From Candidatus Nanohalobium sp. (GTDB lineage Archaea; Nanohalarchaeota; Nanosalinia; Nanosalinales; Nanosalinaceae), in assembly GCA_042217545.1 (NCBI GenBank), contig JBDGSM010000065.1, positions 1 to 15,254 on the forward strand: 15,254 nucleotides of DNA. Direction: 5' to 3'. Both the position numbers and the translations under genes were made by a program. The notes beneath the pieces are model-generated. The model was not told the DNA's origin. It saw nothing but the letters and a program-made list of their open reading frames with translations, and searched no databases. Within the stretch, counting starts at the first letter, position 1. The number at the start of each line of letters is the position of its first letter. Shown piece after piece: positions 1-15,254 of this stretch.

Positions 1-113
1 TGCTCTTCTCCTCCGGAAACCTCGTATGCACAGGAGGCAAGACCTACGAAGACGTTAAGGAAGGAATCGCTACCCTCGAAGAGAACCTGAAAGAAATCGG
101 AGCACTAGACTAG
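1..113 (+). CDS. tbp: TATA-box binding protein, C-terminal fragment (truncated by window edge)
   Basis: The frame from base 3 reads LFSSGNLVCTGGKTYEDVKEGIATLEENLKEIGALD* (TAG 111-113). This matches the TBP second-repeat motif LFxSGKxVxTG-K. It is not in the ORF track. Confidence 0.85.
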   Translation, partial: LFSSGNLVCTGGKTYEDVKEGIATLEENLKEIGALD

Positions 114-120
114 CTCCTCC

Positions 121-150
121 ACATTTTCCCCCCTTAACTCTTTTTTCCAC
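121..150 (+). terminator. Pyrimidine/T-rich putative archaeal terminator after tbp
   Basis: ATTTTCCCCCCTTAACTCTTTTTTCC lies between two convergent genes. Confidence 0.4.
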
Positions 151-164
151 GTTTAATACCGAAG

Positions 165-479
165 CTAGCTCCAGTCCGTTTCGCTGACCTTCTCCTCGAT
201 CTTTTCCGCGAGTTCAAAATCTTTCTCGGTTAGGCCTTCCGCATCATGCGTGTAGAGGTCGATAGAGACTGCTCCATATTCTACCTTGACTTCTGGGTGG
301 TGAAAGGCCTGTTCCGCGAGAGAAAATACGCCGTTGGCGAAGAAGACCGCATCCCTGTAGTCGTCGAACTCTACCCGACATACAAGGCGTCCCTCGTCCA
401 GGGTCTCGATCCCCCAGATACTCAGTTCGTCCAGTTTTTCCTTTATCTCCGTTTCTGAAAGCGGTTCTGTATCAGCCAT
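165..479 (-). CDS. Pterin-4-alpha-carbinolamine dehydratase (PCD/PhhB family)
   Basis: Has the signature AEQAFHHPEV...YTHDAEGLTEKDFELAEKIE. The ATG at 479 (MADTEPLSE) is preferred to 518, giving 104 aa and a divergent intergenic gap. Confidence 0.88.
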   Translation of the reverse strand: MADTEPLSETEIKEKLDELSIWGIETLDEGRLVCRVEFDDYRDAVFFANGVFSLAEQAFHHPEVKVEYGAVSIDLYTHDAEGLTEKDFELAEKIEEKVSETDWS

Positions 480-540
480 GTTTGTTTCTGAGGCCTCGAC
501 TGTTTTCACTTTTATCACTTTTCGCCACCTTTATCCTGTT
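480..540. promoter_or_regulatory. Divergent promoter region for pcd and mcm
   Basis: A 61-bp T-rich spacer with TTTTAT about 30 nt upstream of the mcm ATG at 541. It contains AGGCCT at 491. Confidence 0.4.
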
Positions 541-3500
541 ATGGACTACGGGGAGGCGGTCAGCGAGTTCGAGGAATTCTTTGATGAGACGTACTACAGC
601 CAGGTATCCGCAGCCGTAAAGAATGGAGACGGCGCAGTAGTAGTCGATTTCCAGGATCTTGACATGTTCTCACCCGAAGTTACTGACTACCTAACAGATA
701 ATCCTGATAGCGCAGTTGAGGCTGCAGAGGAAGGCCTCCAGGTCCATGACCAGGTTAACGACGAAGATCTTGGCGTAAGGATTGGCAACTTCCCGGAGCA
801 TGACTATGTCCTCCTGAGAAACCTGCGTTCTGAACATATCGGAAAGTTCGTACCTGTAGAGGGAATGATCAAACGTGCCTCCCAGGTAAAGCCGGAGGTC
901 GTCTCCGCAGTCTTCGAATGCAGCCAGTGTGGCGATCTGTACGAAAAGGAGCAGGACTCCTCGAAGCTGAAATCACCTTATAAATGTGAATGCGGCTCGA
1001 AGAAGTTCGAGGTCCAGGAAAAAATCATGACAGATACACAGGTCGTTACCCTGGAGGAGAACCCGGAGTCAAGAGAAGGTTCCGAACAGCCTACATCGCT
1101 CTCCGTACGCCTGGAAGGCGCTCTAGTAGATCCGGAGTTCCAGAAGCGCGTTGTACCGGGTAACGTCGTCGAGGTAACCGGAAAAATCCGTGAAACACCG
1201 CTCCAGAAAGATTCAAAGAAATACGACATCTACATGGAAGCCAACCACGTCAATCCTACCCAGCAGGAATTTGAACAGCTTGAACTTACGCAGGAAGAGA
1301 TCGACGAAATAAAAGAAATGGCGGAAGACGAAGACATATTTGAAAGCATCAATAACTCGATAGCACCAAGTATATACGGCCACGATCGCATCAAGGAAGC
1401 GATCGCCCTCCAGATGTTTGGAGGCGTAAAAAAGACCAGGGACGACGGAGTCAAAAGCCGTGGAGACCTTCACATCCTGCTCATCGGTGAGCCAGGAACA
1501 GGAAAATGCGTAGCGCCAGATACAGAGATCATAAGTACCGAAGGCGAAAGATATGAGATAGGAGAACTAGTAAACAATCGAATTGAGAGTTCTAACGAAG
1601 TAAAAGAAATAGATGACGGAGTTTACGTAGAGGAAGAAATAGAAACCTTGGGAATCGACGATAAAGGAAAAATCGAAGAGAAAAATTCCTCTAAAATGTG
1701 GAAGAGAGATGCGCCAGAAAAAATGTTTAAGATAAAAACAAACTCTGGCCGAGAAGTTGAAGTAACGCCATCACATCCATTGTTCACACAGAAAGATGGA
1801 AATATTATAGCAAAGAAAGCTGAGGGCCTAAGTGAAGGACAATTTATTGCAGCTCCTCGTGAACTGGAAATAAGGGAGGATAATTCACTAGAGGCTTCTT
1901 ATAGAAAATCAAAAGCAAATAATGCAATAAGGTTAGATGCTCCTAAAGAGTTGAATCCTGGTTTTTCCCGGCTTCTAGGGTATATGGCGGCTGAAGGATA
2001 CATACAGAAAACAGATCATAACAGTAATACGCTATACTTTACTAACAACGATAAAGAGCTGCTAATGGATGTATCTGAGCAATTAGATCGACTGAGTGTC
2101 AACTATACTCAAAGGCCTTCTCATGAAGGAAAGTCTGCCAAGGAAATTCATTGTAGTGCATCTGAACTTATAAGCTTCTTAGAAAATGTAGCTCCATCTC
2201 TAGTTAAACGATCTAGAGAAAGGGAAATACCTGATACTGTTTTTTCAGCCTCGGATAAGAACGTTAAGAATTTCATAATGGCCTTTGTGGAATCGGAGGG
2301 GACTGTATCCCGAAAAGAAAGAGAAATATGTATAGGATCTACAAGTAAGAAGATATTAGAAGATCTTCGAACGTGCCTTCTTAGATTTGGTATACAGTCT
2401 CAGCTTAAGCCCCGAACCGGTAGTTATAGACTTCGAATTAGTGGGCATGATTTTGATGAATATGTTCAAAATTTAGGGTTCATCACTGAGAGAAAGAAAG
2501 AATCTTCAACTGCCTTTGACTCGGTAAATAATACTAATACGGATGTAGTACCGCAGATAGGGGATAAGTTAAGAGAGGTAAGAGAAGCCTTGGGAATGAC
2601 CCAGTTTGATTTTTCCATAGGTAGGGGAGCATATCAGCACTATGAAAGATTGGATAGAAATCCTAGCTTAGGTAATCTAAAGACAGTAAGTTCTGACTTT
2701 AGAGAAAGAGTAGAGTATCTAGAGAGAATAGAAGAAGAACTTAATGAGGCCTCTTGGAACAAAATTAAAGCCATAAGAAAAGAGCTCAAAATAAGTCAAG
2801 CAAATTTGGCTGAAGATATAGATACCACCCAAAGTACGGTAGGTAATTACGAAATGGGGAAGACGAAGAGTCAAAATGTAGCTTTGCTAAATGAGGCCTC
2901 TGAGGAGCTTCAAAGTGTAATCCAGCAGAAGCTGGCTGAAGTTAAAACAGAATTACATAAGATAGAACAAGTTGCTAATTCCGATATTTTCTGGGATAAA
3001 ATAGAATCTATAGAGCAAGTTGAGCCAGAATATGATTATGTTTACGATTTGGAAATACCTAAGTATCATAATTACATAACTAATGGCATATTATCCCATA
3101 ACTCTCAGCTCCTGAAATTCACGGGAGAAATCGCACCCAAAGGCCGCTACGTGGTAGGTAAATCAAGTACAGGCGCAGGCCTTACAGCATCAGTAGTAAA
3201 AGAAGAGTCTACAGGAGAGTTCTCACTGGAAGCAGGAGCCGTAGTCCTCGCACACAAAGGAATGGCAGCGATCGACGAAATCGACAAGATGGACAAGGAA
3301 GACCGCTCATCACTTCACGAAGCCATGGAACAGCAACAGATCTCCGTCTCCAAAGCCAACATCCAGGCAACACTGAACGCGGAAACTTCGATCCTGGCAG
3401 CAGGAAACCCGAAACTTGGAAGATTCGATCCATACGAACCGATCGCAGAACAGATCAACATCGGAGACACGTTGCTTTCCAGGTTCGACTTCATCTTCCC

Positions 3501-4128
3501 GGTCATGGACGAACCAGACCAGGAAAAGGATACAGAACTCGCAGACAAGATACTGCAGAACCATATAGACCCTGAAGAGACCGAAGCAGAGATCCCCGGC
3601 GAAAAACTGAGAAAATACATAGCCTTCGCCAAGAAGAACAGAAGGCCTCAACTCACACCTGCGGCCTCCGACAAGATACAGGAATTCTACGTCTCGATGC
3701 GCCAGAAAGGAGATGATGAAGGCGGAGGAGTACCTATCACCGCAAGACAGCTTGAAGCAACGATACGTACTGCTGAGGCCTCGGCAAGAGCACACCTGAA
3801 CAAAGAAGTCACTGTCGAAGATGCTGAACGGGCCATCGACCTCCTGACTTACTCACTGAAGCTTGTAGGAATGGATCCGGAGACAGGAGAGTTCGACATC
3901 GACAGGATCGAATCAGGTATCTCAAGCTCCGAAAGAAACCGGCTTCAGACAGTCAAACATATCATACAGGAACTAGCAGGAGACGAAGACTCGGCAGAGA
4001 TAGAAGAAGTGCTTGAACAGGCCGATCAAGAAGGAATAGCCGAGGAAAAAGCTGAAGAGATAATAGAGAAGCTTAAAAGAGAAGGAGAGCTCTTCGAACC
4101 CCAGCAAGGCCACATCCAGAGGATTTAG
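541..4128 (+). CDS. mcm: Replicative helicase MCM (Cdc21/Cdc46 family), intein-containing precursor
   Basis: N-terminal Zn finger CSQCG...CECG. Walker A GEPGTGK|SQ is split by the intein. Also SSTGAGLTA, Walker B IDEIDKM, arginine finger SRFD, sensor-2 ITARQLE and a C-terminal winged helix. The ATG at 541 is preferred to 478. The precursor is 1195 aa and the spliced protein 663 aa. Confidence 0.97.
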   Translation: MDYGEAVSEFEEFFDETYYSQVSAAVKNGDGAVVVDFQDLDMFSPEVTDYLTDNPDSAVEAAEEGLQVHDQVNDEDLGVRIGNFPEHDYVLLRNLRSEHIGKFVPVEGMIKRASQVKPEVVSAVFECSQCGDLYEKEQDSSKLKSPYKCECGSKKFEVQEKIMTDTQVVTLEENPESREGSEQPTSLSVRLEGALVDPEFQKRVVPGNVVEVTGKIRETPLQKDSKKYDIYMEANHVNPTQQEFEQLELTQEEIDEIKEMAEDEDIFESINNSIAPSIYGHDRIKEAIALQMFGGVKKTRDDGVKSRGDLHILLIGEPGTGKCVAPDTEIISTEGERYEIGELVNNRIESSNEVKEIDDGVYVEEEIETLGIDDKGKIEEKNSSKMWKRDAPEKMFKIKTNSGREVEVTPSHPLFTQKDGNIIAKKAEGLSEGQFIAAPRELEIREDNSLEASYRKSKANNAIRLDAPKELNPGFSRLLGYMAAEGYIQKTDHNSNTLYFTNNDKELLMDVSEQLDRLSVNYTQRPSHEGKSAKEIHCSASELISFLENVAPSLVKRSREREIPDTVFSASDKNVKNFIMAFVESEGTVSRKEREICIGSTSKKILEDLRTCLLRFGIQSQLKPRTGSYRLRISGHDFDEYVQNLGFITERKKESSTAFDSVNNTNTDVVPQIGDKLREVREALGMTQFDFSIGRGAYQHYERLDRNPSLGNLKTVSSDFRERVEYLERIEEELNEASWNKIKAIRKELKISQANLAEDIDTTQSTVGNYEMGKTKSQNVALLNEASEELQSVIQQKLAEVKTELHKIEQVANSDIFWDKIESIEQVEPEYDYVYDLEIPKYHNYITNGILSHNSQLLKFTGEIAPKGRYVVGKSSTGAGLTASVVKEESTGEFSLEAGAVVLAHKGMAAIDEIDKMDKEDRSSLHEAMEQQQISVSKANIQATLNAETSILAAGNPKLGRFDPYEPIAEQINIGDTLLSRFDFIFPVMDEPDQEKDTELADKILQNHIDPEETEAEIPGEKLRKYIAFAKKNRRPQLTPAASDKIQEFYVSMRQKGDDEGGGVPITARQLEATIRTAEASARAHLNKEVTVEDAERAIDLLTYSLKLVGMDPETGEFDIDRIESGISSSERNRLQTVKHIIQELAGDEDSAEIEEVLEQADQEGIAEEKAEEIIEKLKREGELFEPQQGHIQRI
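1507..3102 (+). mobile_element. Intein (532 aa) in MCM Walker A, with LAGLIDADG homing endonuclease and two HTH inserts
   Basis: Starts at Cys (TGC 1507, CVAPDT) right after GTGK. Block B is VTPSHPLF. LAGLIDADG motifs are LLGYMAAEG and FIMAFVESEG. Blocks F/G are VYDLEIPKYHNYITNGILSHN, followed by Ser+1 (TCT 3103). It is visibly more AT-rich than the exteins. Confidence 0.96.
2743..2901 (+). repeat. 12-bp direct repeat AATGAGGCCTCT (2743-2754, 2890-2901) bracketing the second intein HTH
   Basis: Exact 12-mers 147 bp (49 codons) apart and in frame. Both encode NEAS. Confidence 0.8.
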
Positions 4129-4141
4129 ACTTCTTTTTACC

Positions 4142-4231
4142 CTGGTTCATTCAGGAAAGATGAGGAAGCAAGGCCTTTTCTGCATCCCGTCTTTAGGTGT
4201 TCTGAACCAGTTGACAGGTTTTCCTGAGTCA
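4142..4231. other. Intergenic extended stem-loop (possible structured RNA or regulatory element)
   Basis: Nested pairings are CTGGTTCA 4142-4149/TGAACCAG 4203-4210, AAAGATG 4156-4162/CGTCTTT 4188-4194, and GGA-GCA/TGC-TCC closing a loop that contains AGGCCT. A second hairpin CAGG-TTTT-CCTG lies at 4215-4226. Confidence 0.4.
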
Positions 4232-4263
4232 CGTACTAAAGTTTTTTCAACCCATTACTGTGT

Positions 4264-5010
4264 ATGCCCCAGCAGAAGAGACAGACTGCGAAAATGACTG
4301 ATACTGAAGAGCTCAACACCGGAAAATACTTTCAGAGAGAGGGTTTCGAGCCTAACTTCCTTCTCACGGTGGATGGGCGGAGACTTTCCCGCGCAAGACT
4401 CGTAGGAACAGTAGTTGACTCATTTATCAACGATGACGAAACATACGCATCGCTGACAATAGACGACGGAAACGACACGACACAGATCAAGTTCTTCAAC
4501 GAAGTAGAACGCATGGAAGACTACGAGATCGGCGACATACTTGAAGTAGTAGGAAAAGTCCGCGAGTACCAGGGGCAGATCTATCTTGATGGTGAAGTAC
4601 TCAAAGAGGCCGGAGTCGAGAAAGAACTACTCCACCAGCTCAGAAAAAAGAAAAGCGACGAAGAATGGAGCCAGATACACGAAACCGTCAAACAACTTAA
4701 GGAAAGCGGCAAAGATCAGGACGAAATCGAAAAAGAAATGGCAGGCAAACTCGATGAAGACGAAGTCGACGCACTACTTCAGAGCTTCGGAGAGACCTTC
4801 GACACCGCAGACACAGAAGAAGACCGGGAAAACCTCGAAAGAGAAGTCCTCGAATCCATCGAAGAACTCGACGAAGGCGACGGAGCAGACTACAGCGAGA
4901 TCGTCGACCAGATCGACGAACCAGAAGACAAACTCGAAGACACCATCAACGGCCTCCTAAGCGACGGCACCTGCTACGAACCACAGCCCGGCAAGATCAA
5001 AAAACTTTAG
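4264..5010 (+). CDS. RPA32/Rpa2-like OB-fold ssDNA-binding subunit with C-terminal winged helix
   Basis: OB fold SRARLVGTVV...LTIDDG...VVGKVREYQG, an acidic linker, and C-terminal GADYSEI...INGLLSDGTCYEPQPGKIK typical of RPA32-type WH. Confidence 0.8.
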   Translation: MPQQKRQTAKMTDTEELNTGKYFQREGFEPNFLLTVDGRRLSRARLVGTVVDSFINDDETYASLTIDDGNDTTQIKFFNEVERMEDYEIGDILEVVGKVREYQGQIYLDGEVLKEAGVEKELLHQLRKKKSDEEWSQIHETVKQLKESGKDQDEIEKEMAGKLDEDEVDALLQSFGETFDTADTEEDRENLEREVLESIEELDEGDGADYSEIVDQIDEPEDKLEDTINGLLSDGTCYEPQPGKIKKL

Positions 5011-5025
5011 AAAGAGAAAGATACT

Positions 5026-5424
5026 ATGACAGACTACGAAGACCTACTTGAGAAAGGACAGGAGGAAGTTCCTGAAGACATAGGATCCGGTGACAGATTC
5101 GAGATACCGGAGATCAAGACGAGGAAGGAAGGATCCAAGACGATTGTAGAGGATTTCAAAGGCCTTGCCGAGAAGTTCAACAGGGATGAGAAACACATGT
5201 CGAAATACATCCAGAACGAGCTCGGAACCGCAGGCCACATCGAAGGCAACGAACTCGTCCTGAATGGAGATTTCCGCCGTGGCAAAGTCAACGGGAAAGT
5301 ACATCAGTACGCGGACAAGTACCTTTTCTGCCCTGAGTGCGAGAGGCCTGACACAGTTATCAAGAAGGAGAAAGGAGTGGAAATCCTGAAATGCCAGGCC
5401 TGTGGCGCCAGGACGCCGATTTAA
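5026..5424 (+). CDS. eif2b: Translation initiation factor aIF-2 beta subunit
   Basis: DRFEIP...ELGTAG and a C-terminal Zn ribbon CPECERPDT...CQACGA; 132 aa. Confidence 0.93.
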   Translation: MTDYEDLLEKGQEEVPEDIGSGDRFEIPEIKTRKEGSKTIVEDFKGLAEKFNRDEKHMSKYIQNELGTAGHIEGNELVLNGDFRRGKVNGKVHQYADKYLFCPECERPDTVIKKEKGVEILKCQACGARTPI

Positions 5425-5456
5425 GGCCTTTCTACCGGATTTTCCTCGTCTGCCTG

Positions 5457-5536
5457 TTTTAAAAGGTTTGCCGGGGATTGAATGGGTAACGGATACATCG
5501 GGATAGACGATTCCTTGTATCTGATTTCAGAGGTGA
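5457..5536 (+). promoter_or_regulatory. TATA box, leader hairpin and RBS for the 5544 gene
   Basis: TTTTAAAA at 5457-5464, a hairpin GGATACA..GGGAT/ATTCC..TGTATCT at 5491-5522, and GAGGTGA at 5530-5536. Confidence 0.5.
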
Positions 5537-5543
5537 ATTATTT

Positions 5544-5783
5544 ATGCCAGATCAACCAGAGGAAGTAGGTCCTCAGCAGGCAATGCAGATGTTCCAGCAG
5601 AAACTCGGCAACCTTGAGCTTACAGTACACGCTCTTCTCTCCGTACTTGAGGAGAACGACGTCGTTGACCAGGAAGAGATCAACGAAGAAGCTCAGGCAA
5701 TCGTCGAAGAGATGCAGGAGCAGCAGGCACAGGCAGCTGAAGGCCTCGGCGACCTAGAAAACGAACTCGAAGACGACGAGTAA
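5544..5783 (+). CDS. Small acidic hypothetical protein (79 aa)
   Basis: Strong GAGGTGA RBS upstream, host-like codon usage, E/Q-rich helical sequence. Confidence 0.75.
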   Translation: MPDQPEEVGPQQAMQMFQQKLGNLELTVHALLSVLEENDVVDQEEINEEAQAIVEEMQEQQAQAAEGLGDLENELEDDE

Positions 5784-5829
5784 AAAATTCCCCCTTCTTT
5801 CCACCAACACATATTTTTCTTATATTTCT

Positions 5830-6645
5830 CTAGATCCTCATCAGAAGCCAGTAAACTATGTAAAGCGAGCATACCCCGGCCCACAGATACATCATCTTCT
5901 TCATGTTCTTCTCCGTTACCAGAGGATAAAACGAGAACAGCAGCGAGATCCCAAGTAACGTACGGGTCTCCATACTCCAGCTCTGCAGTATCAACGCCAT
6001 AACCAGCAAGGCCTGTCCAAGCAGTACGATACCACGCCGTCCCAGGACCACTGCAGAAGTCATGATATCAGACTTCATGTCAGATTCCCTGTCAACGTAC
6101 GAAGCAGCCATATGACCCGGTCCTCCGAATATCAGCGCGAACCAGAAAGCACCAGGGATAACATCGTCGAGAAAACCGCCTGCAAGGCCTACACCGATAC
6201 AGAAAGTAGCGTAAAGGATAACAATGTTACACGCGGAATCCAGGAAAGGCCTCTCCTTCAAACGGAAAGGCGGAGCAGAGTACAGGAAAGATGCGACAAC
6301 TACTGCAATACTGCCCAGGAAGGAGAAAACAGGTAGAAAAGCAGCAAGGCCCAGAAGCAGGACATGCGAGATCGCCGCCACGTATTTAACAAAGTTCTCG
6401 TTTTCTCCAGTCACTACAGCTCCTTCAAGACCTCCTTTCCGATCGTTATCCGCATCTGAATCCCTGTCAAAGTAGTCATTGAGCGAGAAGACCGCGAGAT
6501 GTCCAAGAACCGTGAACGCAGCCAGGGTAGGCAGCATCGTCACTGAGAAACTTCCGGTCGTGACAACGCCCGCTGCCAGCACCCAGAACGTGAAGACTGC
6601 GAAAGGAGGCCTTACAAGCTCTGCAAGCAGTCTCCACCGTTTCAA
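5830..6645 (-). CDS. UbiA-superfamily membrane prenyltransferase, CrtEb/LyeJ (lycopene elongase)-like
   Basis: Multi-TM protein with Asp-rich motifs NDYFDRDSDADNDRKGGLEGAV and DRESD...TSAVVLG, plus YSAPPFRLKERPFLDS. The TTG start overlaps the nth stop. Confidence 0.85.
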   Translation of the reverse strand: MKRWRLLAELVRPPFAVFTFWVLAAGVVTTGSFSVTMLPTLAAFTVLGHLAVFSLNDYFDRDSDADNDRKGGLEGAVVTGENENFVKYVAAISHVLLLGLAAFLPVFSFLGSIAVVVASFLYSAPPFRLKERPFLDSACNIVILYATFCIGVGLAGGFLDDVIPGAFWFALIFGGPGHMAASYVDRESDMKSDIMTSAVVLGRRGIVLLGQALLVMALILQSWSMETRTLLGISLLFSFYPLVTEKNMKKMMYLWAGVCSLYIVYWLLMRI

Positions 6646-7316
6646 ACCTCTTCACCCTCCAGAGGCTGACAGAGCTCGGGAATAGGGCCTTCATCACAGG
6701 TTGGATTCCGGGCCTTACAGTGCGCACGACCGTGCTCGATCAACAAACGGTGGAACTCGTACTTTATATCATCGGGCACCTTCTCCTCCAGGATCTCATG
6801 CGCCTTCTTCCTCGAAGCATTCCGGGGGATAAGGCCTAAACGCTTGCTGACCCTGTGAACATGCGTATCGACCGGCATCACGGGCTTCCTGAAGTAGAAA
6901 CACAGGATTATCGCGGCGGTCTTGGGCCCTATACCCGGAATATCCGTCAACCAGGCCTTGCCATCTTCAACGCTCATATCCCCGATAAACTCCAAACTGT
7001 ACTTGTTCTGGTCTTCACGTACGATTCTGAGAGCTTCCTGAATCCTCTCCGCTTTTGTAGGCCCCAAACCGGCAATACGAATAGTATCTATAAGCTCCTC
7101 ACGGTCCGCGTTCTCCACTTCCTCCCAGGTCTCGTATCGCTCCTTCAACTGCCTGAAGGCCTTGTCCCTGTTGATATCATTCGTGTTCTGTGAGAGAATG
7201 GTCTCAACCAGATAGTCTATCCCGGACTGTTCCTGCGGCGGTTCCGGTTCGCCGTAGAAATCCTTCAGCCGCTGGTTGATATCTCTTATTTTCTCTTCCT
7301 CGTTTTCGTAATCCAT
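6642..7316 (-). CDS. nth: Endonuclease III-family (HhH-GPD) DNA glycosylase
   Basis: ILSQNTND, HhH IPGIGPKTA, PVDTHVHRV, and a degenerate C-terminal FeS motif CKARNPTCDEGPIPELC. Confidence 0.9.
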   Translation of the reverse strand: MDYENEEEKIRDINQRLKDFYGEPEPPQEQSGIDYLVETILSQNTNDINRDKAFRQLKERYETWEEVENADREELIDTIRIAGLGPTKAERIQEALRIVREDQNKYSLEFIGDMSVEDGKAWLTDIPGIGPKTAAIILCFYFRKPVMPVDTHVHRVSKRLGLIPRNASRKKAHEILEEKVPDDIKYEFHRLLIEHGRAHCKARNPTCDEGPIPELCQPLEGEEV

Positions 7317-7347
7317 AACTGAAACTTCCGGTTCAGAGTTAAAAACT

Positions 7348-8226
7348 TCAGAACCGCTTTAACCTGAATCCGTAGAACTGCTCAGGCCTTGACATGTTCC
7401 GGTCGAAACCGCCTAATCTCCTGCCCGGAACCTCCTCACAGAAACGTGGATCGCCCAGCAGGAACGCTTCTCCTGAAAGGCCTTCAACAACTTCTTTTAC
7501 CTGGTCCAGGTGCTGCTGGATCTGCTCCTCTCTCTTTCTCTCGAACCGGCCCTGGGAGAAACCACCTTTCGAATGCTTCTTCTCCACACGTGACTTCAGG
7601 TGCTCAACTTCCTTCACTTCTCCTGAAGACTCCGTGAAAATCTGCGTGTCGCCCGCGGATACCAGGACCCAGAACTTCTCCCTCTCGATAAAATCAAGGA
7701 GTTCAGAGGCCTCGAAGTTTCCGGAGATCTCCAGTTTCTCCGTGAAGAAAGGCCTTGTCTCAAGCATCCAGTTACCCAGATCCTCGTCCATGAAAGCGGC
7801 GAAGCTCTTCCTGGACGAAAGCTGCTGGAAATCTTCCCGGTTCACGGAGTTCTTCAGGTCCTTTCTTCTATCAAAACTTTCGAACTTCCTGGGGCAGTAA
7901 ACAGTTACCAGCTCCTCTTCTTTATCACTGACTGTGGAAAGCTTCTTCAACAGGTTGAAGGCCTTCCGGAAGCCGATTTTCTGCAGTTCCTGCTCTTCCT
8001 GCTCTTCCTCTGTTTTCTTTTCTCCTTTCAGGCCTTCAAGTTTATCTTCAAGCCTGTTAAGCTTCTCCTGAGCTTCCTGTTTTTCACTGGACAGTTTGCT
8101 TCTTCTCTCCTTCTCGGCCTGGTACTGGTTCTCCAGCTTCATTTTTTCCTCCTCCAGTTCCCCGATTTTTTCCCGGAGTCTCTGTATTTCCTTGTCTTTT
8201 TCTTCGGTGTTCCAGGGCAGTTTCAT
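7348..8226 (-). CDS. Archaeal Vms1/ANKZF1-like release factor 1 (VLRF1) protein
   Basis: N-terminal coiled coil and the catalytic-loop motif KHSKGGFSQGRFERKREEQ characteristic of the VLRF1 clade. Confidence 0.82.
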   Translation of the reverse strand: MKLPWNTEEKDKEIQRLREKIGELEEEKMKLENQYQAEKERRSKLSSEKQEAQEKLNRLEDKLEGLKGEKKTEEEQEEQELQKIGFRKAFNLLKKLSTVSDKEEELVTVYCPRKFESFDRRKDLKNSVNREDFQQLSSRKSFAAFMDEDLGNWMLETRPFFTEKLEISGNFEASELLDFIEREKFWVLVSAGDTQIFTESSGEVKEVEHLKSRVEKKHSKGGFSQGRFERKREEQIQQHLDQVKEVVEGLSGEAFLLGDPRFCEEVPGRRLGGFDRNMSRPEQFYGFRLKRF

Positions 8227-8326
8227 ACCGAGAACTTGGCGTTCGATGCTTTAAACTGTTGATCCACAGGACTTCTCGGCGGAAAGCTTTTAAGATTAGC
8301 AAGTTGTGGTTTTCTTAGTGGTATAG

Positions 8327-8635
8327 ATGCCCGAAATGACAGTTGAGGAACTTGACCCAGAGTCTGATGATGTCGAAATCACAGGAACAATCAAGGAGCT
8401 ACCAACTCCACGCGCCGTTTCCACTCGTTACGGCCAGAAAAAGATAGTGACCGCAGTATTCGAGGACGATACAGGAGAAATTGACCTGACACTGTGGGAA
8501 GAAGAGATTGAAGCGATCGAGGAAGGAGCAGAAGTTCACATCACAGGAGCATACGTCAGGGAATGGGCTGACGACATTCAGCTCAACATCGGCAGAGACG
8601 GCAACATAGAGATGGTCGAAGAAGCGGAGGAATAA
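8327..8635 (+). CDS. Single OB-fold ssDNA-binding protein (SSB/RPA-like)
   Basis: DDTGEIDLTLW...GAYVREW...QLNIGRDG OB-fold motifs; 102 aa. TTTTAA lies upstream at about 8288-8293. Confidence 0.85.
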   Translation: MPEMTVEELDPESDDVEITGTIKELPTPRAVSTRYGQKKIVTAVFEDDTGEIDLTLWEEEIEAIEEGAEVHITGAYVREWADDIQLNIGRDGNIEMVEEAEE

Positions 8636-8690
8636 GCTCGCAAAAATTTTCCACTTTTATTTCCATATCTCTATTTTCTATATCTCCATT

Positions 8691-9336
8691 TTATGTATCA
8701 AGGCCTTCAGTATCAAGCCAGTCGTACTGATCAGGATCCTCGAAGGCCTCCTCAATCAACCATTCTGCGTCCCCTTCGTTTACCTCTTCTATAAGGTCCT
8801 GCCGTTCTACAGGAGGATGGGCCCTGTTCTCCTTCTTGGTAAGTAACTATAGATCCGTCCTCAGCACTCAAGACTTCGGTCCACCAGATACTGGGTATCG
8901 TGGAGACCGCCTTCGCAGACTTGTGCTTCGACCCTTTCTCCGCGGTGGTGTCAACTTTGTCGTGGACCTCGTCAGGGACGTAGAAATGCTGGTTTTAATC
9001 CATAGGCTCGCCGTGAGGCGTACTTACTGTCGCTCCATCCGGTAGAACGGACTCCTCCATCAACCGGTAGACACCCCAGGCATCGTCGTCCAAGTAGACG
9101 TCCGTACCATTGTTAAGATCGTACCGGGCGTTAGGCTCGGATCTCTCCGCGAAATCGTCCTTCCCTTCGTCCAGCTTCTGAACAAGGAAAAGGCCTGGAC
9201 CAGTTTCCTTCGTGTACTGTAAAGTAGGATACTCCGAAGTCACGCTCAAAGTTTTCAGCACCTGGTTTACAGTATTCTCGTATGCATTGAACCTCGAACT
9301 ATCTTCGAGATCGACAGCAAGTTCCATATCCTCCAT
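8691..9336 (-). pseudogene. Probable pseudogene of an ~214-aa acidic hypothetical protein (nonsense plus frameshift)
   Basis: The 113-aa ORF stops at TAA 8995-8997, but the frame continues NQHFYVPDEVHDKVDTTAEKG...TYQEGEQG. Removing one base near 8820 joins it to HPPVERQDLIEEVNEGDAEWLIEEAFEDPDQYDWLDTEGLDT* (TAA 8691-8693). The span is 646 bp, i.e. 215 codons plus 1. Confidence 0.6.
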
Positions 9337-9434
9337 CGAACTATAATTGTGACTGAAGAATTATAAAATTCTTTCAGGCCTCTACATATCTCCGTCCGTA
9401 ATTTAAAATTCCAAGACATCTTTTCAGCATAAGG

Positions 9435-10520
9435 ATGGGCATCGAAGACAGGATACAGGAACTGGAAGAGAAACTTGAGAAGACGCCGGTCAACAAGGCG
9501 ACAGAAACAGAGAGAGGCCGTATAAAGAGCCAGATCGCCGACCTGAAAGAGGAGAAACAGAAGAAGCAGAAAGGGACTGGAGAGACCTCAGGCTACGCAG
9601 TAAAGAAGAAAGGCGACAAAACAGTTGCGCTAGTCGGATTCCCATCGGTCGGAAAAAGCACGCTTCTCAACCAGGTGACCAACGCAGAATCGGACACAGG
9701 AGCGTACGAGTTCACAACGCTCGACGTCAACCCGGGCATGCTCAAACACAAAGGCGCGAAGATACAGATACTCGACGTACCAGGCCTTATAGGTGGAGCG
9801 GCAGACGGAAGAGGAGGCGGAACACAGGTACTATCGGTAGTAAGAAACGCAGAATTCGTCGTAATTTTACTGGATTCTGAGGAGATGAGGGAAGACGAGA
9901 TCAAATCCGAATTATACAACGCAGGCATAAGGATTAACACAAAGCCTCCGAACATGAAAGTCGAGAAGAAAGGCAAAGGCGGCATCAACATCTCCACAAC
10001 CGTCGACCTTGACATCGAAGAGGAAACTATCAAGCAGATCATGCACCAGAGAGGCTATAAAAACGCCGAAGTAATCATAAGAGAACAGATGGATCTCGAC
10101 AGATTCATCGACGGTCTCATGGAGAACAGGAAGTATGTGCCGGCCATCACAACGGTCAACAAGTCCGACATGCTGTCAAGAGAAGAAAGAGAGGAGTACG
10201 AAAAAGAATACGAACTTCTGATGTCTGCGGAGACGGGTGAAGGCCTCGATAAACTGAAGGACAAGATCTTCGAAGGCCTCTCCCTAATGAGGATCTACAT
10301 GAAGGAGAAAGGAGAGGATCCGGACAGGGAGGATCCGCTTATCATGACAGAAGGAGCGACTGTAGGCGATGCTCTTGACGAACTTCCAGGCGATATGAGG
10401 GACAGGTTCAAGGACGCGAAAGTGACTGGAGAGAGTTCCAAGTTCCCGGAGCAGAAGGTCGGAACCGACCACGAACTTGCGGACGAAGATGTGCTACAGC
10501 TGAACCTGAGACACGTATGA
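9435..10520 (+). CDS. drg: DRG/Rbg-family (OBG class) ribosome-binding GTPase with TGS domain
   Basis: NKATE N-terminal motif, G1 GFPSVGKST, G2 YEFTT, G3 DVPG, G4 NKSD, and TGS QKVGTDHELADEDV. Confidence 0.93.
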   Translation: MGIEDRIQELEEKLEKTPVNKATETERGRIKSQIADLKEEKQKKQKGTGETSGYAVKKKGDKTVALVGFPSVGKSTLLNQVTNAESDTGAYEFTTLDVNPGMLKHKGAKIQILDVPGLIGGAADGRGGGTQVLSVVRNAEFVVILLDSEEMREDEIKSELYNAGIRINTKPPNMKVEKKGKGGINISTTVDLDIEEETIKQIMHQRGYKNAEVIIREQMDLDRFIDGLMENRKYVPAITTVNKSDMLSREEREEYEKEYELLMSAETGEGLDKLKDKIFEGLSLMRIYMKEKGEDPDREDPLIMTEGATVGDALDELPGDMRDRFKDAKVTGESSKFPEQKVGTDHELADEDVLQLNLRHV

Positions 10521-10617
10521 GAGGAAAAGTTCTCAGAAGGCCTTAAATTAGCTGAAAAACTCTTAGCTCTGGTCTCACCATCACAGTTTATAAAAATTCA
10601 GGCCCTGTTCTAGGTTG

Positions 10618-10734
10618 ATGGCAGCTGATTTCATGGACGACACCGGGCATCAGATCTCGGTGGAGTTTGAAAGTGGAGGCCTTTCAACCAGGCTATTCAC
10701 GTACATCAGACAGAAAGTAACGACAAGTAAGTAA
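10618..10734 (+). CDS. Putative leaderless small protein (38 aa)
   Basis: MAADFMDDTGHQISVEFESGGLSTRLFTYIRQKVTTSK*. TTTATAAA at 10587-10594 sits about 24-31 nt upstream of the ATG, and a T-rich tract follows. Confidence 0.45.
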   Translation: MAADFMDDTGHQISVEFESGGLSTRLFTYIRQKVTTSK

Positions 10735-10769
10735 ACCTGCCGACCCCCATACTTTTCTACTCTTTATTT

Positions 10770-11222
10770 TCAGCCTGAACCCGCATCCTCAACTTGCCGG
10801 ATAAACCTCTCCGCCTCATCGCCAAGATCATCACGACCTATCACCAGCACAACAAGATCCTCGTCTTCAAGGCCTTCTCTTTCTTCCTGAGTCAGGTAAC
10901 GGGCCAGAACATTCGAGTTCCTGGCCTTGCATATCCTGATCTCCATGTTAGGCCTCTCCTCTGAACCGAACTCCAGTTTTACAACGTCTCTCCTCGCCTT
11001 CAAGTGGTGTTTGATAGCCCTTGCTGCCCGTGAATCAAAACTAGGGAACTCGTGGACAGTCCATACATGATCGTCCGGATGCGTCCTCTGTATCTCCACC
11101 TCGTAGAACTCACATCTGTCACCGTACTCGCCGAGACAGAACTCCGTCGCCAGTTCGGATAGCTCTTCAAGGCCTCCGGTGTACACGGTGTAGAAAGCAC
11201 TCTTCTTCGAGGACTGGTTCAT
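10770..11222 (-). CDS. Hypothetical protein (150 aa)
   Basis: Acidic ORF with AT-rich upstream sequence; no family recognised. Confidence 0.65.
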   Translation of the reverse strand: MNQSSKKSAFYTVYTGGLEELSELATEFCLGEYGDRCEFYEVEIQRTHPDDHVWTVHEFPSFDSRAARAIKHHLKARRDVVKLEFGSEERPNMEIRICKARNSNVLARYLTQEEREGLEDEDLVVLVIGRDDLGDEAERFIRQVEDAGSG

Positions 11223-11269
11223 AGAAAGTAATTGGGATATGAGAAAGTAAAAAGATATATGCGCCTGGT

Positions 11270-11647
11270 TTACTCTTCCACGAGTTCGGCGTTGACTACT
11301 CCATCCTGTCCAGGCCTTGAAGTGACTCTCGCCTTACCTTCTGAGGTCTGGATGATCGTTCCCTTCGTCAAAAGTGATCTTCTGACATAGTTGGGATTCG
11401 CAGGATTCTCCTCAACTGATTCGATCTCTGCGTTCTTTACATCTCCATTTACTGAAACGTTAACAGTCTCTGCTCTCTTTACAACTGTTTTCTGATTCCC
11501 GCCCCGGATTCTCCTCTTGATACGTTTGTCTTCACCGACGCTCGGCTCAGAGAACTCGTTACCTTTGTCATGCTTCCTGGACTTCCTGTAACTGCGGGTT
11601 TTACCTCCTGTCTTCTTAGTCTGCGAACGATCTTGCCAAACAGCCAT
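11270..11647 (-). CDS. rps8e: 30S ribosomal protein S8e
   Basis: MAVWQDRSQTKKTGGK...RIRGGNQK...NPANPNYVRRSLLTKGTII...VTSRPGQDGVVNAEL. The true start is ATG 11647, with TTTATAAAA about 25 nt upstream. Confidence 0.96.
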   Translation of the reverse strand: MAVWQDRSQTKKTGGKTRSYRKSRKHDKGNEFSEPSVGEDKRIKRRIRGGNQKTVVKRAETVNVSVNGDVKNAEIESVEENPANPNYVRRSLLTKGTIIQTSEGKARVTSRPGQDGVVNAELVEE

Positions 11648-11667
11648 ACAACTCAAGGCGCGACTAA

Positions 11668-11778
11668 ATTTTATAAAAAGAACATTCTCCCAGGCAGCAG
11701 AAACCCGGTCAAAACACCCCTGCTCAGAGGCCTCGGGTAGGTTTATATAACTTGTCAAGAAGTTCTCGTTTACAGGTG
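11668..11778. promoter_or_regulatory. Divergent promoters for rps8e and the lsm operon
   Basis: TTTTATAAAA at about 11668-11678, TTTATATAA at 11742-11750, and AGGTG RBS at 11774-11778. Confidence 0.55.
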
Positions 11779-11788
11779 CCTAATTTCA

Positions 11789-12034
11789 ATGTCTGACAAC
11801 CACAGTAACAGGAGGCCTTTTGACGTACTCGATGATTCAAAGCAGGGAAACGTTCTAGTAAAGCTGAAGGGATACTCAGGAAAAGATACTACAGTATCCG
11901 GAGAGCTACAGGCGTTCGACAAACACCTTAACATCTGGCTGGACGATGCTTCAGTCAAGACTGAGGATGGACAGACCGACTACGGAAAGCTATTCGTCCG
12001 TGGAGACAACGTCCTCTTCGTCTCACCAGAATAA
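11789..12034 (+). CDS. lsm: Sm-like archaeal protein (Lsm/SmAP1)
   Basis: RRPFDVL...[14 protein letters not shown] (Sm1) and [12 protein letters not shown] (Sm2). It sits directly upstream of rpl37e, the usual euryarchaeal arrangement. Confidence 0.93.
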
Positions 12035-12054
12035 ACTTATCAGGTGAAACTTTC

Positions 12055-12216
12055 ATGGGAATGAACAAAGGAAAACGAAACAAGAAGACGCACGGCAAAT
12101 GCCGCAGATGCGGAGAAAAGGCCTACCATCTACAGAAAGGCCAGTGCGCACACTGCGGATTCGGCAAGACCAAGAAGCGCAACGACTTCAACAAGGTAAA
12201 ACCCCGCAAAGAATAG
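12055..12216 (+). CDS. rpl37e: 50S ribosomal protein L37e (53 aa)
   Basis: [41 protein letters not shown] with a C4 Zn finger and AGGTGA RBS at 12042-12047. It is below the ORF track cut-off. Confidence 0.93.
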
Positions 12217-12225
12217 AGAAGGAAA

Positions 12226-12444
12226 ATGGAATTCTCCGTCATAATTCTCAGTACAGCAGGAGACTTCATGGTAGAAGACTCCACACAGGTAGAAAGAACT
12301 GACAACGGAGTCAAGGCCTCACAGCCATACATCATCAACGAAGACGAACAGGCACAGGAGATCCAAGCCGAAAAAGTCTTCATCCCGTACGAAGCGATCG
12401 AGAACGTGCAGTACGGTGAATTCGAGCACGAAACAACAGAATAA
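12226..12444 (+). CDS. Small acidic hypothetical protein (72 aa)
   Basis: Begins 9 nt after rpl37e with host-like codons and a beta-rich pattern ending VFIPYEAIENVQY. Confidence 0.7.
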   Translation: MEFSVIILSTAGDFMVEDSTQVERTDNGVKASQPYIINEDEQAQEIQAEKVFIPYEAIENVQYGEFEHETTE

Positions 12445-12602
12445 GGGCTCGTAGCTCAGTCTGGCAGAGCACCGGCCTTTTACCTAAGCTGGAGCCCTCC
12501 AGCTTCTGGGTCATTACGGTTCCATTTCCGCGTCCGCGGAAATCCGCTTGACGGTCTTAGGACGATAGCCGGTAGTCGCGGGTTCAAATCCCGTCGAGCC
12601 CA
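12445..12602 (+). tRNA. tRNA-Lys(UUU) with 84-nt intron (12483-12566) at position 37/38
   Basis: Acceptor GGGCTCG/CGAGCCC-A, D-arm GCTC..GAGC, anticodon stem CCGGC/GCCGG with CT-TTT-A, T-loop TTCAAAT. The BHB is relaxed: CTTT/GACG with one mismatch and a CTAAG/CTTAG closing helix. CCA is not encoded. Confidence 0.92.
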
Positions 12603-12653
12603 TCCACGCCTCACAGCCCTTAAAAACTTTCATGAGGCCTAAAAAATTACCCA

Positions 12654-12788
12654 GGACCGGTAGCTTAGCCAGGTTAGAGCGCCACGCTGATAACCTCATC
12701 TTTCCCACCGGAAAGATGCTCTGATCCGACTTTTCCGTCGGAAAAGTCAGAGACGTGGAGATCCCCAGTTCAAATCTGGGCCGGTCCA
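12654..12788 (+). tRNA. tRNA-Ile(GAU) with 60-nt intron (12693-12752) at position 37/38
   Basis: Acceptor GGACCGG/CCGGTCC-A, anticodon stem CCACG/CGTGG with CT-GAT-A, T-arm CCCAG-TTCAAAT-CTGGG, central helix CTGA/TCAG. TTAAAAA lies about 30 nt upstream. Confidence 0.92.
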
Positions 12789-12792
12789 CTCC

Positions 12793-13479
12793 TCACCTGT
12801 TTCTACATGGCTTCTCTTTCAGGCGTAGTAAGGCCTTTTTCCGGTGTCTTCTGAGATTAGTGAGGGTGTTGCTGAGTTCAGGAGTTTTTCTGTTATCTCT
12901 GGCAAGGCCTTCTCTTTCGTACTGGCTGTCTGCTTTCTGGTACTGTCTTTCAAGGGTTGCCAGTTTTCTATGGTCTTCTGTTCTGAGTTTCTGTCTCATC
13001 TGTTTTGCTTCTTCGAGGCTGTAGTTTACTTTTTCGTTGGAGTAGATGATGTTCTGGTCTTTCCACCAGCTGTGTATGTCTTTTTCGCTGTTTCCTTTCT
13101 GGTTTTCTGCCTGTAGAAGTAGTTTGTTGTCGGCTTCAGGGTTTTCGAAGTTCCAGCGGCAGACAGTTACGTCTTCGAAGTCTATGTTCAGTTCGTAGAG
13201 GCCTTCGGAGACGTTTCTTTCCTCTATGTACCTGTTTACAAGTTTTTCTGCTGATTTCTGTCTTCCTTTCCTGTAGTTTTCTTTTTCCTTCTTCATTGAG
13301 TCGTAGATCTCGGTTAGTTCTCCTATATCCAGGCCTTCCTCTGGCCTGGCGTTTTCTGCGACCATGTAGGTTTCCGCGGTCGTGTACTCTACTGATTTCT
13401 CTTTCCGGTAGTTTCCTTTGAAATTCAGTTTGTCCCCGAACTTGTTTCTGGAGGCTGTTTTAACTCCGGGTTCTAACAT
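12793..13479 (-). CDS. Hypothetical protein (228 aa), possibly the remnant of a longer 5'-degraded gene
   Basis: K/R/E-rich ORF with no recognised family. The frame stays open upstream of the ATG to a TGA at 13591-13593. Confidence 0.55.
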   Translation of the reverse strand: MLEPGVKTASRNKFGDKLNFKGNYRKEKSVEYTTAETYMVAENARPEEGLDIGELTEIYDSMKKEKENYRKGRQKSAEKLVNRYIEERNVSEGLYELNIDFEDVTVCRWNFENPEADNKLLLQAENQKGNSEKDIHSWWKDQNIIYSNEKVNYSLEEAKQMRQKLRTEDHRKLATLERQYQKADSQYEREGLARDNRKTPELSNTLTNLRRHRKKALLRLKEKPCRNR

Positions 13480-13735
13480 GTCTCTCTGTAGAAGAGTGAG
13501 GTCGCTTGTTCCTGCTTCAAGGATCTGGTCTATGAATCCTTTCTCTGTAACGCTTTTGAAAGATTCCAGGACTGCCAGGTAATACTTCTCTCAGGAACTA
13601 TTAAACTGTTGCAGCAGGGCACAGTTGAGGGGTCGAACTCCGTTTCCAGTAAAGCCATACCCTTTATAAGGTCCTTGACGTGTTTCGATCCGAAAGGGTT
13701 TTGTATTAAACTTCTTTTGTTTAATGTTGTGTAAT

Positions 13736-15067
13736 ATGGAAGGGAAGCCAGCAGAGGAAATGGATTTCTCTTTGAGAAGTTTTGCTATTTACGCTGTTAT
13801 CGGTATAGGCCTGATAGGCGTTATCGTTGTTCCGGGCCTTTTCTCGAACGTGTATTTGAGGGCTTTGAATACTGTCTGTCTTGTAGCGCTGGGAGGCCTT
13901 GTAGGGCGTACTCTTCTGGGCGTGTTTTTCTCTTTCAAGGAGGTTGAGAAGCCCGGGGTTCCTGATGAGCTACCTTCTGTCAGTATTCTTGTTCCGGCGT
14001 ACAATGAGGAGGGTGTTCTTGGTGGGACTATCGAGTCATGTGCCGACCTGGATTACCCTGCGGATAAGTACGAGGTCATTGTCTGTTACGAGGATGACTG
14101 TACGGACAGGACTGGTGAGATTGCTGAAGAAGCTGCTGAGAAATATGACTTTGTTAAAGCACTGGAAAGGACTGAGGAAGGCGGTGGAAAGGCCCGTGCT
14201 GTAAATTATGCTCTTGAACGAGCTGATAATGATGTTATAGCTTTGATAGATGCTGACCACCAGTACAAGCGTGACGCGTTGAAGAAGGCGGTAAGATGGT
14301 TCCAGAAGGATGATGTCTGGTGTGTTAAGGGCCGTTGTTACGGCAGGAATCCTGATAGTTCTCTTATTACGCTTCACGCTACTCTTGAACGTCATATCAC
14401 GGAGCGGATCGATATACCGGCTCGTTACGTGATGGGTGGTTACACGTTCTTCGGTGGAGGCCAGGCCTTCTTCAGGAGAGAGGTCTTTGAGGAGATAGGG
14501 CCTTTCTCCGAGAGCACACTGGTTGAAGATATCGATATGTCGACCGAGATCCAGAGGAGAGGTAAGGAGATCGCGATCGACATGGATGTCGTCAGTTTCG
14601 AGGAGAATCCTGGTGACCTGAATGCCTGGTGGCGTCAGAGAAGGCGCTGGAGCCGGGGCTGGATGCAGGTCGCAGAGAAACATCTGAAAGGTTTTTCCTC
14701 GGACAACAAGCTTCCATTGAGGAAGAGAATTGACGGCACCTTCACATTAAGCTATGCGATAATTCCGGCGTTCCTGGTTACTCTGCTACCGCTCACTGCA
14801 CTTACGCTACTGGGATACGATACCAGAACGTTCATACCATACTCGAAGTACCTGTGGACGTTCATTGCCTTTGTACCTGTCACTCTGTCCGCCATAATGT
14901 TTGGCATGGATGTGGGAAAGTACAGGCATCAGCTCAGGGAGTACCTGGCTTCGATAACACTCTGGTTCTACCTGTTCTTCCAGGCGGTAGTCCACATATC
15001 GGCCTTCATAGATGAATTCATCCTGGATAAGAAGAACGTCTTCGTAACAACCACCAGAGCAAGCTGA
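13736..15067 (+). CDS. Processive membrane GT2 glycosyltransferase (cellulose synthase-like, PgaC/IcaA type)
   Basis: ILVPAYNEE, GKARAVN, DAD, VEDID and QRRRW motifs with N- and C-terminal TM helices. ATG 13736 is preferred because TATTAAA lies at 13704-13710. Confidence 0.9.
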   Translation: MEGKPAEEMDFSLRSFAIYAVIGIGLIGVIVVPGLFSNVYLRALNTVCLVALGGLVGRTLLGVFFSFKEVEKPGVPDELPSVSILVPAYNEEGVLGGTIESCADLDYPADKYEVIVCYEDDCTDRTGEIAEEAAEKYDFVKALERTEEGGGKARAVNYALERADNDVIALIDADHQYKRDALKKAVRWFQKDDVWCVKGRCYGRNPDSSLITLHATLERHITERIDIPARYVMGGYTFFGGGQAFFRREVFEEIGPFSESTLVEDIDMSTEIQRRGKEIAIDMDVVSFEENPGDLNAWWRQRRRWSRGWMQVAEKHLKGFSSDNKLPLRKRIDGTFTLSYAIIPAFLVTLLPLTALTLLGYDTRTFIPYSKYLWTFIAFVPVTLSAIMFGMDVGKYRHQLREYLASITLWFYLFFQAVVHISAFIDEFILDKKNVFVTTTRAS

Positions 15068-15199
15068 AAGGCCTTGAAAGCCAGAGAATCCTGACCGGTC
15101 ATTTGTTCACAACGGCACAGGGATCAGGATATTTAAACCCGGAACAGAAAAATTATGTTATGGAGATGAGCACCGCATTCTACGAGGTGAAGATTTGAG

Positions 15200-15254
15200 A
15201 TGTCGAGTAAGGAAGAGAAGCTTAACGAGCCTCTTGACGATCTTGGTGATGTTC
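15200..15254 (+). CDS. Start of an unidentified CDS (truncated by window edge)
   Basis: GAGGTGA RBS at 15184-15190, then MSSKEEKLNEPLDDLGDV. TTTAAA lies at 15132-15137. Confidence 0.6.
   Translation, partial: MSSKEEKLNEPLDDLGDV

Follow-up and report, generated by a model that had tools for sequence, protein, structure and literature searches.

We examined a window of 15,254 nt from Candidatus Nanohalobium sp. (contig JBDGSM010000065.1 of assembly GCA_042217545.1, positions 1-15,254 of the forward strand), across whose genes and spacers the palindromic hexamer AGGCCT is dispersed. The window holds 55 exact copies (3.6 per kb), where 200 dinucleotide shuffles of it give 3.87 ± 2.02 with a maximum of 10, so the hand count behind the original prediction (about 55 copies against about 3.7 expected) proved accurate. 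Our gene calls place 45 of the 55 sites inside genes, in three frames and on both strands, and 10 in intergenic DNA, much as had been described from the letters; the most frequent 8-mer context, AAGGCCTT, accounts for 14 of the 55.

Genome-wide abundance of AGGCCT

The window's own genome (G000; 1,032,751 bases in 82 contigs, 92% complete, 1,158 genes in our own calls) encodes an acidic proteome and, judged by homologues, belongs to an archaeon of the nanohaloarchaeal kind. It carries 3,699 AGGCCT, present on all 82 contigs at 1.3-5.9 per kb per contig; the motif ranks first among hexamers by a factor of two and exceeds a second-order Markov model 5.1-fold. Coding sites by frame number 540/1068/1563, compared with 93/172/221 after a genome-wide synonymous-codon shuffle (an excess of about 6-fold in every frame) and 127/206/266 after a within-gene shuffle, and intergenic sites number 478 against 21 expected (about 20-fold), a stop codon followed by GGCCT being a common context among them. 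An excess in all three frames together with an intergenic excess answers the objection at which a dicodon-preserving null is aimed, and upholds the prediction that codon or amino-acid bias is insufficient and that a genome-wide force acts on the DNA independently of codons. AGGCCT occupies 70-85% of the coding positions able to hold it, encoding 76% of Arg-Pro pairs and 86% of Glu-Gly-Leu triplets, and the 22 tRNA genes contain one copy. The observation itself is real and strong.

Distribution across the family

Among 50 genomes of the family, 12 are rich in the motif (2.0-4.8 AGGCCT per kb, with genome sizes rounded for densities), one (G042) is intermediate at 0.95 per kb and 37 lie at 0.06-0.69 per kb; the 16 genomes examined from other families in the order include no rich one. 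Because the 11 rich genomes other than G000 include four single-contig assemblies, an assembly artefact is excluded, and confinement to the window, another circumstance that would have undone the prediction, is ruled out by the same genomes and by the 82 contigs of G000. Below we draw on two of the single-contig rich genomes, the closed chromosome of G003 and G054 (analysed on 380 of 916 kb), and on G021 as a poor comparison genome.

In a tree of RpoA' from 48 of the 50 genomes (G004 and G062 left out; a quick search with SH-aLRT, that is, approximate likelihood-ratio, support only), every rich genome falls inside one 26-genome clade (support 100) that also contains 14 others. Of the opportunities for the motif within RpoA', 74 of 95 are filled in the rich genomes, 4 of 89 in 12 poor relatives and 6 of 179 in 24 others. 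Between G042 (1 of 9 filled) and its sister G043 (6 of 8) fourfold sites differ by 0.43, which indicates fast turnover of sites. The simplest reading is an ancestral gain followed by at least four losses, with repeated gain as the alternative. None of 80 viral loci examined, from at least 123, was both AGGCCT-dense and acidic in its proteome.

All nGGCCn words are strongly under-represented in G021 (log-odds -0.7 to -2.5), in whose L179 region (840-842 kb) a C5 methylase adjoins a likely restriction enzyme; a GGCC-specific system may have purged sites from this genome.

Preference for the perfect site

The single-base neighbours of AGGCCT are all depleted, with positions 1, 2, 4, 5 and 6 behaving alike: A/G/T at position 4 occur 37/21/59 times against 704 for C, the alternatives at position 5 occur 37/21/36 times against 1068, and those at position 6 occur 14/30/18 times against 539. 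Since every neighbour is drained rather than one mismatch type, the force prefers the perfect site over any other allele, and these counts exclude a one-step conversion of the Vsr kind, which the original prediction had raised.

Synonymous choice was fitted by a logistic model that includes codon and trinucleotide terms; it assigns AGGCCT log-odds of 3.2/4.0/2.9 (G000/G003/380 kb of G054) and AGGCCC 1.5/2.5/2.1, such that the palindrome is worth roughly two sites. AGGCCA and AGGCCG reach 0.2-0.3 in G000, 0.7-0.8 in G003 and 1.1-1.5 in G054, and inner one-off variants lie near the level of poor G021. At aligned codons, amino-acid contexts compatible with the motif number 1,897 in G000 and 1,185 in G021 and are 60-70% commoner, an excess inflated by G021's own avoidance of GGCC.

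An AddAB-like gene pair tracks the motif

Set against G021, the genomes G000 and G003 yielded 91 candidate genes, and 115 G003 proteins were annotated. The lead that emerged was a length difference seen in four genomes and then checked across all 50. The addA-like gene (A) encodes 906-913 aa in three rich genomes and 759 aa in poor G021, where the C-terminal nuclease domain is missing. Full-length A is found in 12 of 12 rich genomes, including assemblies only 68-82% complete, and in 10 of 38 others (Fisher 5e-6, a value computed over kin that are not independent). All 12 rich genomes have the addB-like gene (B) immediately upstream of A, with a split across two contigs in G043, and in G000 the two are co-oriented with a 4-bp overlap. 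Scored as rich of 12/poor of 12 (genera g1, g2 and g18-g21), B alone gives 12/7, a weaker segregation than that of full-length A. Genus g2 has both genes in 2 of 2 rich and 0 of 4 poor genomes, the poor assemblies being 77-89% complete. Five of the seven poor genomes of genera g19 and g20 carry a nuclease-less A of 758-774 aa and two yielded no A; in the g19/g20 set, G051 has an additional full-length A and G052 a nuclease-bearing A fragment.

A combines UvrD helicase domains (PF00580, E 3e-53; PF13361) with a C-terminal PD-(D/E)XK nuclease (PF12705 at residues 821-898) whose motifs D...D.K and Q...Y are invariant in 21 long forms, and it matches PcrA, AddA (3u44) and other UvrD/REP chains. 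B, a putative degenerate helicase with a PD-(D/E)XK nuclease domain (PF12705), has a weak UvrD_C match (24.5 bits against a cut-off of 25.6). Gene trees (FastTree, 30 loci partly overlapping the 50 genomes) bring all six rich rows, five nuclease-less poor rows and one full-length poor row (L207) together in a single nanohaloarchaeal clade (support 99-100). Full-length copies outside it, from nanohaloarchaea L227 and L229, Halobacteria and Thermoplasmata, sit in AGGCCT-poor DNA, so that an intact enzyme from this single lineage appears to be required without being enough by itself. In B, residues Q212-S213 are common to the six rich rows and seen in 0 of 23 others, a lead to specificity only.

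At L204, L205, L216, L231 and in G021 a nuclease-less AddA-like helicase accompanies a B that lacks a G-x-F stretch near residues 43-45, and these loci are predicted to carry a derived form of the machine with a single nuclease. In Natrialbaceae (L218, L219 and L228), CTCGAG in the vicinity of the same gene pair occurs at 2-3 times the second-order Markov expectation, which may reflect only Leu-Glu codon pairs.

A proposed palindromic Chi-like site

Drawing on the abundance of the motif, its drained neighbours, the domain layout and adjacency of the pair and their co-occurrence, we think it somewhat probable that AGGCCT is a Chi-like site at which a putative AddAB-like helicase-nuclease stops chewing broken ends, spread by biased repair; of the options listed in the original prediction, the evidence now favours a recombination signal. 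A and B would form an AddAB-type machine recognising AGGCC(T>C>G,A) along the strand that it tracks, and a palindrome would serve both directions in a chromosome without clear replichore polarity. A broken copy would be repaired from a sister or from incoming DNA. Resection would halt at a site on the broken copy and would overrun a site-less allele, which would then be copied from the donor, so the site-bearing allele would win either way. Resection that stops at the site but removes the site-less allele would amount to a drive that is blind to the allele, acts locally and in any gene, and ends with loss of the nuclease. Selection for protecting self DNA might assist it, and after loss of either the pair or the nuclease domain of AddA the sites would decay at about the synonymous rate.

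Several observations weigh against this proposal. Ten genomes combine full-length A with no high AGGCCT density; within the 26-genome clade this holds for 4 of the 14 non-rich members (G042, G051, G005 and G014), among which G005 and G014 belong to the same supported clade, and G042 stays at 0.95 per kb beside 3.5 per kb in its sister G043, with its own B in pieces at contig ends. No alternative motif was found in such genomes; CCCGGG, tried as one, was rejected because G012, a genome without the pair, has high levels of it too. The helicase likeness of B is weak (hhalign against A, E 9e-4, probability 23%); B matched neither AddB models nor solved chains in the PDB, and lacks four conserved cysteines of the iron-sulfur (Fe-S) type. 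The four-cysteine Fe-S cluster of AddB is of the Bacillus type and is not known to be universal. One-sided variants show no replichore polarity in G003, a genome without clear GC-skew replichores, and density is 3.28 per kb in core genes against 3.60 per kb in genes without homologues, where known Chi is core-enriched; AGGCCT therefore fails on two classical properties of Chi, polarity and core enrichment. It does have the genome-wide over-representation of a short word, and for dependence on a RecBCD/AddAB-type enzyme the finding is co-occurrence only (12/12 against 10/38). Sites also exclude one another at close range (see below), and the exclusion extends to opposite-facing one-sided sites (11 against 34 expected at 7-25 bp in G054; same-facing sites 31 against 43); a toy resection model gives a gradual slope instead of the observed sharp drop below 45 bp followed by a plateau. 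The additive pattern of strengths fits a dimeric binder just as well.

Alternative explanations

That last point belongs to a rival we consider unlikely, in which AGGCCT is bound by a sequence-specific chromatin or nucleoid protein of dyad symmetry that covers about 45-60 bp, weak selection for binding sites fills the genome and the AddAB link is incidental. Sites avoid one another below about 45 bp, with both-occupied observed/expected ratios that lie at 0.3-0.7 for distances under 30 bp and return to about 1 past 55 bp. The ratio for other inverted hexamers is 0.99-1.04, so the avoidance is specific to AGGCCT and a generic avoidance of inverted repeats is rejected as its cause. This exclusion, the half-site-like additivity and the flanks of the sites, in which the 10-bp A/T phase is stronger (amplitude -0.020 to -0.033) than around control words of the same genomes (-0.007 to -0.010), all fit such a protein. 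Poor G021 has the phase as well (-0.0155 for control words), and a near-flank T bias also surrounds unenriched words, so the flank signals largely represent the general 10-bp A/T phase of these genomes; flank asymmetry did not discriminate between a single-strand and a dimer reading. Further against a nucleoid protein, spacing shows no periodicity up to 400 bp. AGGCCT is evenly distributed on the closed chromosome of G003. Conservation of site positions in orthologue alignments, which the original prediction had proposed comparing, is weak across genera (0.84 against 0.65, at saturated divergence). No protein of this kind was found to co-segregate with the motif, and histones, rejected as candidates, occur in 50 of 50 genomes and are near-identical in G000, G003 and G021. 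Most family genomes have three or more histone paralogues, and a 10-bp A/T periodicity at synonymous positions of coding DNA in G000, G003, G054 and G021 is consistent with histone wrapping.

Another co-lost gene, or a single-step mutational bias such as deamination, Vsr-type repair or an error-prone PolB2, is quite unlikely as the cause. About 10 of the roughly 90 genes shared by G000 and G003 and absent from G021 were profiled, a minority of the lineage-specific genes, and G054 was covered in part; another co-lost gene is thus possible, which also counts against our proposal. Nine candidates other than the AddAB-like pair were profiled, and none tracked AGGCCT. Two of the single-contig rich genomes lack PolB2 (8/8), which 8 of 12 poor relatives carry; a DUF483-like gene (8/8) and an HD dNTPase-like gene (8/5) did not track the motif either. 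In five-genome panels, an Mre11-like gene is missing from rich G019 and G054, a SWIM protein is missing from the same two and present in poor G056, and a coiled-coil gene and a Cdc6 paralogue are present in poor genomes. A single-step bias would leave non-convertible neighbours at their background share, whereas all are drained. In G000, PolB2 and two small neighbour genes (C37:1863-5787) are patchy in the family.

The likeness to HIP1, the highly iterated palindrome of cyanobacteria to which the motif was originally compared, holds for abundance and fails on the methylase point. In Elhai's model of HIP1 (PMC4390886), a methylation- or nick-directed mismatch ratchet keeps the strand with the perfect site; acting here through an unrecognised modifying enzyme, perhaps together with NucS, it would predict filling that is blind to the allele, looser positions at the ends of the motif and saturation on a local scale, all of which are observed, and methylases are typically gained and lost sporadically. 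We nonetheless judge it very unlikely. A C5 methylase was found neither in G000 nor in the four single-contig rich genomes, and the N6/N4, D12, Eco57I and N6_Mtase families gave nothing common to rich genomes, so that none of five Pfam families is shared. The sole methylase match in G000 is a tRNA methylase, the matches in G054 are all weak and of the tRNA- and HemK-methylase types, and scanning the proteins of G000 and G003 for motifs gave no common candidate. NucS (10/12) does not track the motif, being present in 46 of 50 genomes with no residue that separates 4 rich from 11 poor sequences.

Drive of the kind known for DNA uptake sequences (DUS) and uptake signal sequences (USS) is allele-blind, rewrites proteins and decays once competence is lost. 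A scheme in which a surface receptor favours AGGCCT-bearing fragments and recombination raises their frequency, as with DUS/USS, would suit the excess of compatible contexts in G000 and the link of HIP1 to type IV secretion genes (PMC13756078), but is highly improbable given that a SPEARE-type ATPase (6/5) does not track the motif, that pilus and HerA-type ATPases also occur in poor G021, that kilobase fragments would not be expected to produce a 45-bp exclusion and that a motif scan, the only coverage given to ComEC/DprA-type genes, was among the searches that yielded no co-segregating uptake gene.

Other features of the window

Individual sites and genes are collected in Table 1. The intein in the MCM gene (~530 aa) has two LAGLIDADG domains and an extra XRE-type helix-turn-helix; the MCM of G003 (663 aa) is without an intein. 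Two tRNA genes with introns were found in the intron mode of the tRNA scan and missed by the default scan.

Table 1. Coordinates of AGGCCT sites and genes in the window and of the AddAB-like pair elsewhere in G000
Feature	Location	Strand	Remarks
AGGCCT, dispersed, 55 copies	window 232..15074		genes of both strands, all frames, and spacers
AGGCCT in pterin-carbinolamine dehydratase gene	window 491..496		gene 165-518, minus strand
MCM gene with intein	window 478..4128	+	intein about 1507-3102; 3 AGGCCT in intein, 5 in remaining open reading frame
AGGCCT at end of aIF2-beta gene	window 5424..5429		gene 5026-5424; first A shared with last base of stop codon
AGGCCT downstream of GTPase gene	window 10538..10543		intergenic; gene 9435-10520
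AGGCCT after glycosyltransferase gene	window 15069..15074		intergenic; two bases past gene end (15067)
tRNA Lys-TTT	window 12445-12602	+	contains intron
tRNA Ile-GAT	window 12654-12789	+	contains intron
addB-like	contig C17, 41792-44359	minus	outside window
addA-like	contig C17, 39063-41795	minus	outside window

Known systems and significance

Like the Chi sites of AddAB in Bacillus subtilis and RecBCD in E. coli, AGGCCT is an over-represented short word, and the linked UvrD helicase with a C-terminal nuclease plus a partner with a second nuclease resembles AddAB (PMC7326373). The Chi of B. subtilis, AGCGG, has five bases and is recognised in single-stranded form by a pocket formed between AddB and the nuclease domain of AddA; this domain, on which AGGCCT would likewise depend, borders the pocket (PMC4614115). 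Known Chi sites are polar and core-enriched (PMC8022716), whereas AGGCCT is archaeal, palindromic, non-polar and not core-enriched, stands once per 250-500 bp and fills 70-85% of its opportunities; its enzyme is putative, and B differs from AddB in having no detectable family match and no Fe-S cysteines. HIP1 (GCGATCGC) and the alternate cyanobacterial palindromes are likewise hyper-abundant in all frames and in spacers, loosest at the outer bases and sporadically lost among relatives (PMC4390886, PMC5861425), but AGGCCT is a hexamer without a cognate methylase, lacks a period up to 400 bp and is weakly conserved in position, and its candidate reader belongs to another class. Genome-wide drive with changes to codons and amino acids, and decay with loss of the machinery, would be shared with DUS/USS of Neisseria and Pasteurellaceae; the latter are asymmetric words of 9-12 bp, unlike this 6-bp palindrome.

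To our knowledge, highly iterated palindromes have been without a proven cause for three decades. New here is that no methylase is shared by the rich genomes and that an AddAB-like gene pair tracks AGGCCT instead. The literature matches listed, from a search with subscription papers and supplements outside its coverage, contained neither AGGCCT enrichment nor an archaeal Chi site, and the available part of PMC11001535 contains no AGGCCT.

There are now two named proteins as a candidate machine, a substrate of 6 bp and, in nuclease-less and gene-less close relatives, natural knock-outs. It is conceivable, if slightly short of an even bet, that an archaeal AddAB-like enzyme evolved a self-driving palindromic Chi which fills three quarters of permissive positions, changes the proteome and vanishes with loss of the nuclease domain, and which would be the first archaeal Chi and a way to a highly iterated palindrome without any methylase. 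If so, a repair enzyme would shape this genome at log-odds of 3-4 per site and shift its protein sequences, and the site would be of practical use, as a rule for delivering DNA to these symbionts and as a binning marker.

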